From the sequence record OR670491: a DNA stretch of 64,000 bases; one strand, written 5' to 3'. This stretch comes from Escherichia phage vB_EcoM_JNE01. The translations under genes were made by a program, and so were the position numbers. Under the pieces are notes generated by a model. It did no database searches, was not told the DNA's origin, and saw nothing but the letters and a program-made list of their open reading frames with translations. Each line of letters opens with the position of its first letter. Position 1 is the first letter of the stretch. Of this stretch, positions 6,124-12,726 are shown piece after piece.

Positions 6124-6534
6124 ATGATTGAAATGGAAGGAACTCTGGTGTATGATCCAGATCGTGGCACTATGAAAAAGAAGAAGGACTTCTGGTTAGT
6201 ACTGCAACTTCCATTACAGTTGGTTCGATACTACCAGTACTTCATCAGAACTGACTTACATATTGATATTAAAGACCCACAATGGGGAGCACATGTCAGT
6301 ATCGTTCGTGGTGAAGTGCCACCAAATCCAGAGTACTGGAAAAAGTACGATGGTATGAAAGTTAAGATTAAGTTCGAACCTTTCATCGAAGAAGTAAAAG
6401 ACAATAAGAAACCTGGGTCATTCTTTATCATAGAGTTTGAAGATGATTTCATTGCACAAATTCGTGATGAACTTGGTTTAGCATCTAAATATTTCAAATA
6501 TCACATCACCATTGGTAGAACATACTACGATTAA
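6124..6534 (+). CDS. 2H phosphoesterase superfamily protein (LigT/cyclic phosphodiesterase-like; possibly Acb1-like)
   Basis: Two H-x-[ST]-x motifs (HVSI near residue 57, HITI near residue 127) in a 136-aa protein, the 2H hallmark. Confidence 0.5.
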   Translation: MIEMEGTLVYDPDRGTMKKKKDFWLVLQLPLQLVRYYQYFIRTDLHIDIKDPQWGAHVSIVRGEVPPNPEYWKKYDGMKVKIKFEPFIEEVKDNKKPGSFFIIEFEDDFIAQIRDELGLASKYFKYHITIGRTYYD

Positions 6535-6557
6535 TGTGGTTATTTGGTAAATAGGTC

Positions 6558-6585
6558 TTGATATAACTAAAAAGTATGCTATACT
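6558..6585 (+). promoter_or_regulatory. sigma70-like promoter (TTGATA, 16-nt spacer, TGcTATACT)
   Basis: Motif upstream of the endolysin gene. Confidence 0.4.
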
Positions 6586-6701
6586 ACTTAAATGTTCCAA
6601 AGAACAACTGAGTACTGTAGAAAGTCCAATGAGGCTTTTGCAAATGGCCTCTTTGCCCTCTTTGTGATTGCTCATTGTTAACAACCAACAAAGGAGGCGT
6701 T

Positions 6702-7628
6702 TTGAAAAAAGCGAAAAAAGCACTGAAAACTAAAATTGCCGTAGGCGTATTAGTTTCATCAGCCCTATTCGCTGCTATTGGATTTTATGGTTTTTCTCAA
6801 AGTGATCATGTACCATCATTAGACGAAAGTCAGGTGCATAATTTAAAACCACAGTTTACTCAAATTCAAAAGCAGGAACTACCACAGGTATCAGTACCAA
6901 AAGCAGTTCCAAGCAGCGAGAAACATTATACGGTTCAACCTGGAGATAGTTATTATTCTATTGCACAGAAATTTAAACCTAAAAATGTACAGATTGAAGA
7001 TTATGTCATTTTGTTGAAGAACATCAACTTAAATGCAACTCTTCATACTTCTCAGGGTATCTTTATCCCAACAAAAGAGGATTTGAAGAACGTATTGTTA
7101 CCAGATGTGACTGTACTGTTTGATTATAAAGATCCAGAAATTGTCAATCACATCAAAGAAGCTGAAGGTTCTATTGAATTTCAGTCCAAGAACAAACGAC
7201 GTTTACTTGGTGGGAAAGTTGGAGTTCCATATCGAAATTCTAAATTTTATCCGTATCGTGATATAAAAGGTAACTTCACTATTGGGTACGGACATTATCT
7301 TGGAAAGAAAGAATCAGATGCAAGTAAGTATCGTAATGGTATTACGAAGTCACAAGCACATAAACTTTTATTGTCTGACATGGAACGAACTAATAATGAT
7401 TTAGTTTTATTATTGAAGAAAAGAAATGCAACAAACCTTACGGCTGAACAGCAACGAATTTTATTTGAGATGGCATTTACATTAGGAGTTGATAAGTTAA
7501 ATACTTTCAATAAATTATGGAAAAGCGTTGATAATCAAAATGATAACAAGTTCAAAAAAGAAATTAAGAATTCTCTATGGTATCGTCAAGTAGGAAACCG
7601 TGCAGAATTGTTAGTTAGTAATTTGTAA
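6702..7628 (+). CDS. endolysin: N-terminal membrane anchor, LysM domain, T4 e-type (GH24) lysozyme domain
   Basis: TIGYGHYLGK and SLWYRQVGNRAELLV match the T4 lysozyme catalytic region; YTVQPGDSYYSIAQKF is LysM; hydrophobic IAVGVLVSSALFAAIGFYGF. Start set to TTG after AAAGGAGG; ORF track begins at 6675. Confidence 0.8.
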   Translation: MKKAKKALKTKIAVGVLVSSALFAAIGFYGFSQSDHVPSLDESQVHNLKPQFTQIQKQELPQVSVPKAVPSSEKHYTVQPGDSYYSIAQKFKPKNVQIEDYVILLKNINLNATLHTSQGIFIPTKEDLKNVLLPDVTVLFDYKDPEIVNHIKEAEGSIEFQSKNKRRLLGGKVGVPYRNSKFYPYRDIKGNFTIGYGHYLGKKESDASKYRNGITKSQAHKLLLSDMERTNNDLVLLLKKRNATNLTAEQQRILFEMAFTLGVDKLNTFNKLWKSVDNQNDNKFKKEIKNSLWYRQVGNRAELLVSNL

Positions 7629-7636
7629 TTTACAAT

Positions 7637-7667
7637 AAAGGATGATATGTATCATCCTTTATTTTTA
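7637..7667 (+). terminator. intrinsic terminator (AAAGGATGAT/ATCATCCTTT)
   Basis: 10-bp stem, 4-nt loop, then ATTTTT. Confidence 0.65.
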
Positions 7668-7677
7668 AGGTAAAAAT

Positions 7678-8310
7678 ATGATATATAATGTTGGTATAAA
7701 TGATGTACCAGGTGATTCTAAATCGGATAGTGATGGTTATTATATATATGTGAAATGGAAAAGTATGATTAAACGATGCTACTCAGTTGAATATCAAAAA
7801 ATACACCATTCATATATTGGAACAACTGTATGTAATGAATGGCTTACATATTCAAATTTTAAAGATTGGTATCTAAATAATTACATAGACGGGTATGTTT
7901 TAGATAAAGACTTGATATCGGGTGATTTACAAGTATACTCACCAGTGACATGTTCATTTGTACCACAAGAATTAAATTGTTCTATTCTTGAAAGTAATAG
8001 TGCTAAAACAAAACTACCATTGGGTGTGTCATATCAACAGAAAACTAAAAATATGATAAATGAACGTTCGAAACCATATGATTCATATATAAAAATGTAT
8101 GGTAAGTTGTATCGTCTTGGTAGTTATGAATGTCCTGAACTTGCACATAAAGAATGGCAAATCGCCAAGAAAAAATATCTCGAAGAACTCATTGACAGAT
8201 ATAAAAATTCTGTTAAAATGGAAGTCATAGAAGGTATTCAGAAACGAATTGATATATTACATAATGATATAGTCAATGACGGTGTTACAATAACAATCAA
8301 TAAGATATAA
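7678..8310 (+). mobile_element. free-standing HNH (HNH_3)/AP2-type homing endonuclease gene
   Basis: Pattern YxxWxxMxxRCY ... VCxEW ... LDKD ... YSPVTC and AP2-like GVSYQQKTKNM; very AT-rich, bracketed by terminators. Confidence 0.5.
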
Positions 8311-8322
8311 GGTAGGTAAATT

Positions 8323-10991: not shown

Positions 10992-11424
10992 ATGCGTTAT
11001 AGTTGTGGTATAATATTTTATCGTGATGGTCAGATACTTGTTGGTCATACAACACGGACAGCAGCACTGGGATTTACCTAAAGGTAAAACTGAAGGTGAT
11101 GAAACATTTAAAGAAGCTGCGGTTCGTGAGTGTTATGAAGAGACAGGATTCCAAATCAATGAAGATGATTTACTTCTTCTTGGTGATGTTTCTTATAGAA
11201 AGGGTAAGAGATTAGTATTATTCTTTTATACTGCAAAGGATAAGCCAATCCCTTCAGAACTGGAATGTAAAAGTACTTATACCAACCGATACGGTAGAAG
11301 TCATCCAGAACTGGATAAGTTCATGTACATTGATGTAGAAGATTGTCAAAAGTATTTGACTGAACGAATGTGTAATAGTATAATAAAGGCTGTTAAAGCT
11401 TTTCAAAGAAACAGAAGGAAATGA
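10992..11424 (+). CDS. Nudix hydrolase with disrupted frame (N-terminal strand in frame of ATG 10992, Nudix box in the +1 frame)
   Basis: Frame of 10992 gives MRYSCGIIFYRDGQILVGHTT then stop; the ORF-track frame from 11023 carries HWDLPKGKTEGDETFKEAAVRECYEETG. Removing one nt near ACAACA would fuse them. Confidence 0.5.
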
Positions 11425-11426
11425 AT

Positions 11427-11675
11427 ATGAAAGTTAAAATTTATGGTCGTAAGACTGGCTGTAAGTTCTGTGATACTGCGAAGCAAGTATGTGAAGCGAA
11501 CAAATTTGATATGGAATTCATTGATATCGCTGAAGCTGGTATCGATGGTGTTAAACTGGCAGAAATCTGTGGTCAAGCAGTACGCCAAGTTCCACAAATC
11601 TTTGTAAACGAAGAATACGTACCAGGTGGTTGTACTGGTTTTATCGATGGTCTACGTGAAGGTCGCTGGAATTAA
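11427..11675 (+). CDS. glutaredoxin (T4 NrdC-like)
   Basis: CKFC active site near the N-terminus, ~82 aa; the AGGA SD fits the second ATG. Confidence 0.65.
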   Translation: MKVKIYGRKTGCKFCDTAKQVCEANKFDMEFIDIAEAGIDGVKLAEICGQAVRQVPQIFVNEEYVPGGCTGFIDGLREGRWN

Positions 11676-11917
11676 TGAATATTGATAAAGTATCATTACG
11701 TGCTAAACAATTAGCAGAACAATTTGGTATTGAGTTTAAAGTACCAGATATTAAAGCTGCTCAAGAACATGCACAACGTAAGATTCACAAATTAAAAGAG
11801 TATACTTCTAATAAAGAGAAGTATGATGAAGCTATCGCACACATTGTTGAGTCATTCAGTAAAGATGATATTTTGGCATTCTTAGATTCTGTAGCGGTTT
11901 CTAAAAACCCTAAATAA
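11675..11917 (+). CDS. hypothetical protein
   Basis: 80-aa ORF; TAATG overlap. Confidence 0.45.
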   Translation: MNIDKVSLRAKQLAEQFGIEFKVPDIKAAQEHAQRKIHKLKEYTSNKEKYDEAIAHIVESFSKDDILAFLDSVAVSKNPK

Positions 11918-11962
11918 TATTGAAGAACACAAGTTCTTCGTAACAATTTGGGAGATACTATT

Positions 11963-12202
11963 ATGCTCAGTTTTCGTGAACAATTAGCAAAAGGCAATTT
12001 CGCTGCTCAAGCTCAAACCAAAATTCCTAAAAAGTCAGCTTTCTTAGGGACGATTACAGAAGATGGTTATTGTGATTTTAATGCACCAGAAGATACGTGG
12101 TACATTGAAAAAGACACAAAACGTAGTAGTAGACTTCACAAAAGTACCGTCGCTCGAAAACAGCGTAAAGAATTAAAACGTATACGTTTTGGTGAAGAAT
12201 AA
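11963..12202 (+). CDS. hypothetical basic protein
   Basis: ATG preceded by GGGAGA; ORF track begins at TTG 11948. Confidence 0.4.
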   Translation: MLSFREQLAKGNFAAQAQTKIPKKSAFLGTITEDGYCDFNAPEDTWYIEKDTKRSSRLHKSTVARKQRKELKRIRFGEE

Positions 12203-12209
12203 TAAAATT

Positions 12210-12238
12210 AAGGACTCTTACAAGGAGTCCTTTCTTTT
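12210..12238 (+). terminator. intrinsic terminator (AGGACTC/GAGTCCT)
   Basis: Stem-loop followed by TTCTTTT. Confidence 0.6.
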
Positions 12239-12249
12239 CGGGGTATAAA

Positions 12250-12726
12250 ATGATACACGAACATATTGGTAATCTGTTTGAATTATTCAGTACTGTAACA
12301 AATGATGACGGTGTATTGCACATAATCGCTCATGGTTGTAATGCTCAAGGTAAGATGGGTTCAGGATTTGCAAAAGAATTACGAAATCGTTACTCAATGG
12401 CCTACGATGATTACAAGAAGTATGAAAAGGAAATGGGCTTTCTACGAACTGGTCAAATTTCCTATTCTGCCATCAATGATGATTTGATTATTGCAAACTG
12501 TATTACCCAAAAATGGTATGGTACAGATGGTGCAAAATACGTAAGTTATGATGCAATTGACGAAGTATTTCATAAACTAAATATGTTCTGTAAAATTGAA
12601 CGCAATGTTCATTTGCACTTCCCGAAAATTGGAGCCGACTTAGGCGGTGGTAACTGGAACGTTATCAAAGAAATCATTGACCACAGGATGGTTAATGCAG
12701 AAAAACACTTATATATTTTGAAATAA
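12250..12726 (+). CDS. macro-domain protein (ADP-ribose binding/processing)
   Basis: LHIIAHGCNAQGKMGSGFAKEL resembles the macro-domain Gly-rich loop; HFPKIGADLGGGNWNVI resembles its second conserved segment. Confidence 0.45.
   Translation: MIHEHIGNLFELFSTVTNDDGVLHIIAHGCNAQGKMGSGFAKELRNRYSMAYDDYKKYEKEMGFLRTGQISYSAINDDLIIANCITQKWYGTDGAKYVSYDAIDEVFHKLNMFCKIERNVHLHFPKIGADLGGGNWNVIKEIIDHRMVNAEKHLYILK

Follow-up and report, generated by a model that had tools for sequence, protein, structure and literature searches.

A conserved frame break in the Nudix gene of Asteriusvirus jumbo phages marks a candidate +1 recoding site in a shared accessory gene neighbourhood

Introduction

How is a phage gene read when a single nucleotide splits its coding sequence between two frames, and do its neighbours tell us what it is for? 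These questions are raised by a run of small genes in Escherichia phage vB_EcoM_JNE01, of which we analysed a stretch of 64,000 nucleotides (record OR670491; hereafter the window). An earlier, sequence-only reading had picked out six genes between positions 6124 and 12726, for a 2H phosphoesterase, a ribosome hibernation factor (HPF), a CCA-adding enzyme that seemed to lack the HD domain, a Nudix hydrolase, a glutaredoxin and a macro-domain protein. It proposed, as one reading, that they form a module for the repair of tRNA 3' ends and cyclic phosphates against host anticodon or acceptor-stem nucleases, and that the macro and Nudix proteins could additionally reverse ADP-ribosylation or degrade ADP-ribose-derived immune signals.

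All six open reading frames (ORFs) exist, every one on the + strand, with coordinates equal or close to those first given, and the six domain assignments hold: the 2H protein by its fold and its HxS/HxT motifs, the HPF, Nudix and glutaredoxin proteins by Pfam, the CCA-adding enzyme by Pfam and NCBIfam, and the macro protein by its homologues in the PDB, which make it Poa1p-like. The gene list was nonetheless partial, as it left out an interleaved lysozyme gene, an HNH gene, seven small ORFs and a PTH2-fold gene at 13070-13447. Here we report that the Nudix gene carries the same one-nucleotide frame break in all eight genomes examined from the genus Asteriusvirus. The best explanation of the stretch, to which we assign a probability of about 0.6, is a conserved accessory neighbourhood of separate transcription units, with the roles proposed below and with a recoded Nudix gene. 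The domain identities, synteny, frame break and selection that underlie this explanation were computed, and from them we infer activities, substrates and the shifting mechanism.

Results

The Nudix gene is interrupted by one extra nucleotide

The interval 10992..11424 comprises 433 nucleotides and consists of two reading frames joined by one extra C at position 11055, as laid out here.

10922..10949, + strand: promoter-like site in the spacer between the CCA and Nudix genes, TGGACA-16-TATAAT with TG (11 of 12 consensus positions; a consensus match only)
10992..11054, + strand: Nudix codons 1-21, MRYSCGIIFYRDGQILVGHTT, frame 0, with the ATG at 10992 and a GAGA Shine-Dalgarno-like site upstream
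11055..11057, + strand: frame-change site, where the extra C makes a zero-frame CGG after ACA ACA and the +1 codon GGA is the invariant Gly22
11056..11424, + strand: Nudix codons 22-143 in the +1 frame, including the Nudix box GKTEGDETFKEAAVRECYEETGF
11421/11427..11675, + strand: GrxA/NrdC-like glutaredoxin (Pfam E 5e-9, 36.8 bits against a threshold of 22.9; CKFC at residues 14-17)

Past the break the zero frame runs into a stop after 8 codons, which would give a 29-residue product. Read across it, the predicted full-length protein has 143 residues (about 16.5 kDa), with the junction ...GHTT-GQQHW... and the junction tryptic peptide DGQILVGHTTGQQHWDLPK. The sequence CAT ACA ACA C GGA CAG was present in 8/8 Asteriusvirus genomes examined, namely the window, Turkey5, UE-S1, 121Q, Ecwhy_1, ph0011, WPEC5 and SD-2_S15, and at least 43 further contigs gave the same shortened Nudix gene calls (clusters P0039 and P0058, both beginning MVRYL...). 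The GenBank records examined annotate only this shortened ORF, from 11026, and so lack the Nudix N-terminus. In phages K64-1, CBB, Munch and Vibrio phage 2.275.O, by comparison, the Nudix homologue is intact and reads ...GHTTGQxHWDLPKGK... in one frame. The gene is also intact at 51 of 52 Nudix loci from IMG/VR and in the sister-lineage loci L067, L068 and L069, and it is in a single frame in two metagenomic sister lineages that have the whole gene order. In total, more than 50 loci outside the eight genomes were free of the break.

Both sides of the break proved to be under selection in the frames that together encode the Nudix protein. Across the eight genomes, the ratio of nonsynonymous to synonymous polymorphism (pN/pS) for codons 1-21 was 0.055 when they were read in the upstream frame, against 1.35 in the annotated one; for codons 22-143 the downstream frame gave 0.11 and the upstream frame 1.9, and wrong-frame values ranged from 1.2 to 1.9. 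No further stop or indel was found in the Nudix gene of any of these genomes. The N-terminal 21 residues, identical or near-identical to the N-termini of intact homologues, are the same in the window as in an intact homologue with only 72% DNA identity, and the start region of the annotated ORF is not conserved (MVRYLL.. versus MVRYLSD..). Because selection acts on both sides, the gene appears to function across the break.

Sequencing error and a pseudogene were both rejected as causes of the break, on the strength of eight independent genomes, the gene calls of the further contigs and the pN/pS values. In its wider form, an alternative holds that the interrupted gene is either a pseudogene or a pair of separately translated fragments, with no recoding. 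It can draw on the lack of a canonical slippery site or stimulator and on the fact that GenBank annotators all call the downstream ORF only. Set against it are the strong purifying selection on both halves in genomes that all carry the extra C, the freedom from additional lesions, the unchanged N-terminal peptide and the unconserved annotated start, and we consider it quite improbable. We found no paper that mentions the frame break. What is novel in this stretch is a conserved, selected, genus-wide and unannotated +1 frame break of the Nudix gene.

The break is a candidate programmed +1 frameshift

Judged from sequence conservation, the break is a candidate for programmed +1 frameshifting, and two complementing fragments are less likely. 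The Nudix protein would then be made only when the ribosome shifts by +1 at ACA-ACA-CGG-A, probably because it stalls at CGG, a very rare codon. This is the rarest sense codon of the window (2 of 18,900 codons), and its rarity at the site fits a hungry-codon pause. In the mechanism that we propose, the ribosome would stall on CGG, which is served by a minor host tRNA-Arg, and resume on GGA (Gly22), so that Nudix output would track the supply of tRNA-Arg(CCG). Such a programmed shift would be previously undescribed, and we advance it tentatively, at slightly less than even odds.

Few genes of bacteria and phages rely on +1 frameshifts. Known programmed cases are prfB, with CUU UGA C, and yeast Ty3, with GCG AGU U, the latter of the hungry-codon type without tRNA re-pairing. 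The window site resembles both in its conserved one-base break, in the slowly decoded CGG that occupies the A site in the zero frame, and in the short dead end that follows. It differs from them in that it is not at a stop codon, has no known stimulator and leaves no possibility of re-pairing, and from prfB in particular in having no Shine-Dalgarno stimulator upstream.

Several results count against a textbook mechanism at this site. No classical slippery sequence was found there, and tRNA-Thr(UGU) would be unable to re-pair on CAC. The eight genomes have no conserved Shine-Dalgarno-like element upstream, the Gly19 codon varying between GGT, GGA and GGG. As a downstream stimulatory structure a hairpin is predicted, with zero compensatory pairs and no covariation.

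The region 3500-15000 gave no match to Rfam families. We also rejected quadruplet decoding, or an oddly looped tRNA-Thr, as the means of shifting, since both tRNA-Thr(UGU) of the Asteriusvirus phage fEgEco12 have ordinary 7-nucleotide anticodon loops. As a separate observation, this duplicated tRNA reads ACA, the codon just before the shift site.

The Nudix protein is a NudE.1 homologue paired with a glutaredoxin

The reassembled protein contains a perfect Nudix box (GX5EX7REUXEEXGU) and matches the Pfam NUDIX profile at E 2e-12 (47.6 bits), which bears out the original call. It is homologous over the whole fold to NudE.1 of phage T4 (gene e.1; 40% identity over 124 residues, E 9e-21), and the NudE.1 family occurs in many large myophages. 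T4 NudE.1 acts on FAD, diadenosine polyphosphates (ApnA), ADP-ribose and NADH, according to its database record, and decaps NAD-RNA in vitro (bioRxiv 10.1101/2024.04.04.588121). These activities on ADP-ribose, ApnA, FAD and NAD caps are known for the T4 enzyme only, and the two genes differ in that T4 nudE is a single ORF whereas the window gene can be read through only by a +1 change of frame. Another Nudix gene, unrelated to this one, is found on the minus strand at about 53250-53720 (Nudix box 53540-53605), inside the baseplate/tail structural module; the Turkey5 record labels its counterpart as a NUDIX hydrolase.

The neighbouring glutaredoxin scores 63 bits against the NCBIfam GrxA model, under the cutoff of 84, and its gene overlaps the Nudix stop codon through an ATGA. 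Six homologue clusters (P0049, P0050, P0053, P0056, P0057 and P0059) consist of Nudix-glutaredoxin fusion proteins of 225-227 residues. These fusions in relatives tie the glutaredoxin to the Nudix protein and not to RNA. Taken with the ATGA overlap and the invariant Cys5 and Cys92 of the Nudix protein, they suggest redox coupling within the pair; the glutaredoxin may be coupled to the Nudix protein, to ribonucleotide reductase or to both.

The surrounding genes and the relationships of the phage

The + strand carries every gene from 4.0 to 14.3 kb, and the accessory stretch is flanked by a thymidine kinase gene on one side and by the neck/tail module on the other. Its remaining features are listed here.

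6124..6534, + strand: 2H-SAK-family 2H phosphoesterase, 136 residues, with HVS (57-59) and HIT (127-129)
6675..7628, + strand: phage lysozyme with LysM and GH24 domains and an N-terminal hydrophobic segment (Pfam Phage_lysozyme 2e-9, LysM 2.5e-4)
7678..8310, + strand: free-standing HNH homing endonuclease (PHROG 953, 8e-68), a mobile gene inserted after the lysozyme gene and before the HPF gene
8323..8649, + strand: HPF/RaiA-family ribosome-associated factor, 108 residues (PF02482, E 4e-11, 43.9 bits against a gathering score of 23.7)
8658..8684, + strand: terminator-like hairpin directly after the HPF gene, a 10-bp stem with a T run; terminators are annotated there in UE-S1 and Munch
8690-9097, 9098-9481, 9483-9608 and 9605-9793, + strand: four small ORFs with no assigned function and no Pfam match, partly conserved in relatives
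9803..10915, + strand: tRNA nucleotidyltransferase of the class II CCA-adding type, with no HD phosphohydrolase site, by Pfam, NCBIfam and motifs
11675-11917 and 11948-12202, + strand: two small conserved ORFs with no Pfam match, followed by the next hairpin
12210-12232, + strand: terminator-like hairpin before the macro gene
12250..12726, + strand: Poa1p/BT1257-like macro domain protein, 158 residues (PDB by phmmer; PHROG 335, 5e-42)
12740..13057, + strand: conserved ORF with no Pfam match, 44-89% identity across relatives
13070..13447, + strand: PTH2-fold protein, a candidate peptidyl-tRNA hydrolase
13492..14298, + strand: gp13-like neck protein, whose gene opens the structural module and bounds the accessory stretch on the 3' side; labelled neck/connector in K64-1 and CBB

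A megablast search with positions 6000-13000 matched 44 phage records, every one an Enterobacteria jumbo myophage. The closest was Escherichia phage Turkey5 (93.8% identity across 88% of the query). Ecwhy_1, fEgEco12, ph0011, 121Q-like phages and further records came next, with 82-87%; UE-S1, Ecwhy_1, ph0011 and SD-2_S15 are among the relatives assigned to Asteriusvirus. Affinities change along the stretch. For the 2H protein, identity reaches 100% with TH47, WPEC5 and vB_Ec-M-J and only 84% with Turkey5, and the CCA-adding enzyme is 99% identical to that of Turkey5 and about 80% identical to the others. These opposite affinities point to recombination among Asteriusvirus phages within the stretch, and by sequence comparison the phage appears to be a new mosaic member of this jumbo coliphage genus.

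Deposited relatives already label the CCA tRNA nucleotidyltransferase, HPF/RaiA, NUDIX, glutaredoxin and macro-domain genes, and two of the deposited relative records name a peptidyl- or aminoacyl-tRNA hydrolase. The lysozyme, labelled endolysin or lysozyme in relatives, has a role that is not RNA-directed, and it and the HNH gene are probably unrelated passengers in the stretch. The HNH gene is missing from the same site in 6/6 other Asteriusvirus loci that cover it (Turkey5, UE-S1, Ecwhy_1, ph0011, WPEC5 and SD-2_S15; the sequence of 121Q was compared around the CCA and Nudix genes only). Its closest DNA match among phage records is 66.6%, and a homologue occupies the same site in Salmonella phage Munch. 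The HPF protein falls below the NCBIfam equivalog cutoffs (yfiA 34.3 versus 40.9, RaiA 22 versus 158, HPF 17 versus 125), and would be expected to occupy the ribosome decoding site. Among the small ORFs, the 84-residue product of 11948-12202, with its basic C-terminus, is one of the best conserved of the stretch (64-79% identity across genera). The neck gene at 13492-14298 is followed by the tail module, and its homologue in locus L067 matches PF26809 (Phage_T4_gp13).

The gene order is shared widely and is probably divided into several units

The region holds more terminator-like sites than expected (13 versus 4.6). The strong hairpins at 8658-8684 and 12210-12232, together with promoter-like sites in the CCA-Nudix spacer and, by the same consensus scan, before the CCA gene (9731-9760), would divide the stretch, and a single operon is unsupported. 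The stretch thus appears, from these predicted signals, to be a neighbourhood of small, separately transcribed genes in several units. As an aside, at 8629-8684 a perfect sigma-70 consensus (TTGACA-17-TATAAT) overlaps the HPF gene end and lies directly against the region's strongest terminator-like hairpin, an odd pairing of promoter and terminator.

Deposited GenBank genomes with this gene arrangement number more than 40. Alcyoneusvirus, Mimasvirus and Munch-like phages, as well as two metagenomic lineages, also have the order 2H-lysozyme-(HPF)-CCA-Nudix-glutaredoxin-x-x-macro-x-PTH2-neck, at protein identities of 30-89%. As these genomes are generally collinear, the shared order by itself says little. 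Vibrio phage 2.275.O, which is more distant, is more informative; it shares only the 2H (35%), CCA (41%) and Nudix (50%) genes, which lie within 8.4 kb beside a tRNA cluster. Between its CCA and Nudix genes (locus L011, 12458-16359) are a NADAR gene (TIGR02464, 153 bits), which stands in place of the macro gene, and a SpoT/RelA-type HD hydrolase, similar to small alarmone hydrolases; a cyclic-nucleotide (cNMP)-binding protein is also encoded near CCA, and the tRNA cluster and 2H gene are upstream. This phage presents an analogous theme built from non-homologous parts. We considered whether its stand-alone 'HD domain protein' is a split-off Cca HD domain and ruled this out, the protein being SpoT/RelA-hydrolase-like.

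Such conservation might reflect co-location alone, if unrelated accessory genes share an early/middle region by descent. The mixed content of the stretch (thymidine kinase, lysozyme, HNH, glutaredoxin and neck protein), the loss of HPF in Alcyoneusvirus K64-1, the unlinked 2H and CCA genes of Atu_ph07 and the genome-wide collinearity of these phages are all what incidental grouping would predict. It does not easily account for the Vibrio phage, where the 2H, CCA and Nudix genes stay together though nothing else of the stretch is shared and where the macro gene is replaced by the non-homologous, ADP-ribose-processing NADAR, nor for the Nudix-glutaredoxin fusions, which show coupling for at least that pair. 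On balance, we think that purely incidental co-location is a poor explanation of the stretch.

The 2H protein probably belongs to the 2H-SAK family

The 2H protein has both H-x-S/T motifs on a pseudo-twofold alpha+beta fold. On the profile check of this call, the window protein itself stayed under the gathering score of Pfam PF22547 (2H-SAK; 23.8 versus 27 bits), and PF22547 was present in 22 of 25 clusters of its homologues. As a member of this family it would open 2',3'- or 1'',2''-cyclic phosphates.

Acb1, a nuclease that counters the cyclic-oligonucleotide-based antiphage signalling system (CBASS), is likewise a small protein with the 2H fold and is the top structural neighbour of the window protein. 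If the window protein were of this kind, it would degrade cyclic oligonucleotide signals and be no RNA-end enzyme. By phmmer it matched no Acb1 chain, and neither did its family profile; Pfam assigns the family to 2H-SAK. Moreover, the related phage fHe-Yen9-04 encodes both a member of the 2H family (P0015) and a separate 148-residue protein named Acb1, which argues against an Acb1 role for the former. We regard an Acb1-type function as very unlikely.

The macro and PTH2-fold proteins and the case for ADP-ribose chemistry

The macro protein falls below the Pfam Macro gathering score (14.2 versus 22 bits, E 0.042), but it has significant homology to macro-domain structures. By phmmer it matches PDB entries 2fg1 (BT1257; 5e-15), 5e3b (SCO6735; 3e-9) and 6lfq, the yeast ADP-ribose 1''-phosphate phosphatase Poa1p (1e-5); it also has a weak match to DarG (28 bits). 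The PDB alignments take in the Gly-rich ligand loops NAQGKMGSGF and PKIGADLGGGNW. The PTH2-fold protein, two genes further on, has a Pfam E of 0.08, and PF01981 was found in only one homologue cluster; it may free tRNA from peptidyl or blocked aminoacyl esters.

In yeast, by-products of tRNA splicing pass from Tpt1/KptA to a 2H cyclic phosphodiesterase and on to Poa1p. The window has a 2H protein and a Poa1p-like macro protein, encoded 5.7 kb apart, and differs from yeast in that Tpt1/KptA and a 2'-phosphate-forming ligase were not found in the stretch. ADP-ribose 1'',2''-cyclic phosphate (Appr>p) would in this case need to be supplied by host KptA. The Poa1p-like macro protein and the NudE.1-like Nudix protein might together break down ADP-ribose-type compounds or adducts, such as ADP-ribose-1''-phosphate, ADP-ribose, ApnA and NAD caps.

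It is conceivable that counter-defence acting on NAD and ADP-ribose is the main purpose of some of these genes. The macro, Nudix and 2H proteins would then chiefly destroy ADP-ribose-derived signals or toxins (Thoeris-type cyclic ADP-ribose isomers, ADP-ribose-1''-phosphate or Appr>p) or strip ADP-ribose that DarT, CmdT or ADP-ribosyltransferases add to DNA, RNA or protein, and the CCA, HPF and PTH2-fold proteins would be unrelated. The kinship of the macro protein to Poa1p, SCO6735 and, weakly, DarG agrees with this, as do the homology of the Nudix protein to an enzyme active on ADP-ribose, NADH and NAD caps, the NADAR gene at the equivalent place in the Vibrio phage, and the published proposals to this effect (PMC7824862, PMC9503650). 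However, three genes and a terminator-like hairpin separate the macro and Nudix genes, substrate specificity cannot be read from sequence, and the PDB matches of the Nudix protein span the Nudix box only. We judge this narrower reading to be rather unlikely.

The CCA-adding enzyme lacks an HD domain and related phages carry tRNAs without CCA

E. coli Cca combines CCA addition with the 2',3'-cyclic phosphodiesterase, 2'-nucleotidase and phosphatase activities of its HD domain, although most class II CCA-adding enzymes lack HD activity. The window enzyme shares the catalytic half of this protein. It matches PolyA_pol (PF01743; 9e-19, 68.6 bits) and PolyA_pol_RNAbd (PF12627; 4e-8, 33.4 bits), its translation retains all the head motifs (GGFVRD, DKD, RRDLTINA and EDPLRVLR), and solved CCA-adding enzymes in the PDB match it with E values down to 2.5e-21. 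Its best NCBIfam models are Cca equivalogs, all scoring under their own cutoffs; model NF008137 gives 277 bits (cutoff 451) through the N-terminal 202 residues, matching only positions 1-202 of 409. Unlike E. coli Cca, the window enzyme has a C-terminal half that is unmatched, with no Pfam HD match and no histidine in residues 203-370 (the C-terminal 168), so an HD site is impossible. A hidden HD domain is thereby ruled out, and the prediction of a CCA-adding enzyme without one is confirmed.

CCA-adding enzymes are common in phages (498 records). In fEgEco12 (locus L012, 374-2641) we found five tRNAs, three of which, Asn(GUU) and two tandem Thr(UGU), lack an encoded CCA and end ..C|AAA; Ser(GCU) and Met(CAU) encode the 3'-CCA. 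These sister-phage tRNAs offer the enzyme a simpler job than counter-defence. On this genomic evidence, the simplest role for the enzyme would be to mature tRNAs that the phage itself encodes, 3'-end repair being an added benefit. More generally, it would add or rebuild 3'-CCA on substrates that include phage tRNAs without an encoded one.

A stronger version of the repair idea is that the stretch is a dedicated counter-defence module, in which the 2H protein, the CCA-adding enzyme and their helpers repair tRNAs cut or trimmed by host anticodon or acceptor-stem nucleases and the 2H protein replaces the missing Cca HD domain. It gains from the confirmed HD loss with a 2H gene 3.3 kb upstream, from the PTH2-fold neighbour, which fits ribosome or tRNA rescue, and from the linkage of 2H, CCA and Nudix genes in the distant Vibrio phage. 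PMC7824862 puts forward this scheme as well. In the Mimasvirus phage CBB and in Munch, an RNA ligase is encoded about 2 kb upstream of the 2H gene. However, no counterpart of that ligase turned up by homology, either in the window or among Escherichia jumbo-phage records, and neither a polynucleotide kinase nor a 2'/3'-phosphatase domain was seen in the stretch by Pfam. With no ligase, kinase or phosphatase, these genes are not enough to complete anticodon-loop repair. The 2'- or 3'-phosphate left by the 2H protein would itself still block CCA addition, a terminator-like hairpin and unrelated genes stand between the 2H and CCA genes, and the lack of HD activity is nothing unusual in a class II enzyme. 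The repair reading is weakened because a lysozyme gene and a mobile HNH gene are interleaved, because there are probably several units, because the glutaredoxin is linked to the Nudix protein, because CCA-less phage tRNAs provide the simpler role and because the ligase is missing. A dedicated repair module is, in our view, distinctly unlikely.

Discussion

We have described a stretch that we interpret as the conserved accessory, non-structural genes of RaK2-like jumbo phages, among them a Nudix gene that is probably read across a frame break. As a neighbourhood it is ordinary for this phage group: its genes are already annotated, and its functional reading has already been published in silico. 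Iyer, Anantharaman, Krishnan, Burroughs and Aravind proposed repair and ADP-ribose roles for jumbo-phage proteins (Iyer et al. Viruses 2021, PMC7824862, sections 3.4.8-3.4.9; Viruses 2022, PMC9503650), illustrating them with proteins of Ecwhy_1 and Munch. Their sets share with ours the CCA-adding enzyme, 2H, PTH2, Macro and Nudix proteins, the proposed roles and the phage group itself. As family surveys, they do not treat the gene-by-gene neighbourhood, the missing HD domain, the phage tRNAs without CCA or the frame break of the Nudix gene, and their repair scheme depends on a ligase, a kinase and a phosphatase that the Asteriusvirus stretch lacks.

The sequence-only reading was plausible, unoriginal and incomplete. 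A theme of tRNA ends, ribosomes and ADP-ribose does fit the gene content, given the PTH2-fold gene near the macro gene, the NudE.1 homology and the NADAR of the Vibrio phage; the notion of a repair module fits less well, as ligase, kinase and phosphatase are missing and the genes do not appear to form one operon.

Our own explanation has points against it beyond those given for the shift site. The shared order, found within one collinear phage supergroup, may have been inherited and not selected, and the 2H and CCA genes lie about 48 kb apart in Atu_ph07. Promoter-like sites were not enriched (54 found versus 52.6 expected from shuffles), so the unit boundaries rest mainly on three hairpins. 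The host has a Cca enzyme of its own. We found no experimental study of phage CCA, HPF, 2H-SAK or macro proteins in the literature.

The frame break changes how this Nudix gene should be viewed. Every GenBank record examined mis-annotates it as an N-terminally truncated ORF, and the evidence points to conserved recoding in a phage accessory gene. A +1 shift at a hungry CGG without tRNA re-pairing would be mechanistically unusual. If the proposal is right, Nudix output would depend on the tRNA pool that neighbouring genes service, in a manner resembling RF2 autoregulation, and through the frameshift the phage could sense tRNA damage or starvation.

Phage tRNAs without CCA offer a simple reason why tRNA-bearing phages should encode CCA-adding enzymes. 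The CCA, PTH2, HPF, 2H, macro and Nudix-glutaredoxin proteins can be viewed as a set of tools that serve tRNA ends, ribosomes and ADP-ribose. Together with the parallel in the Vibrio phage, with its NADAR and SpoT-like hydrolase, this set provides concrete candidates for countering toxins that act by altering the ends of tRNAs or by attaching ADP-ribose.

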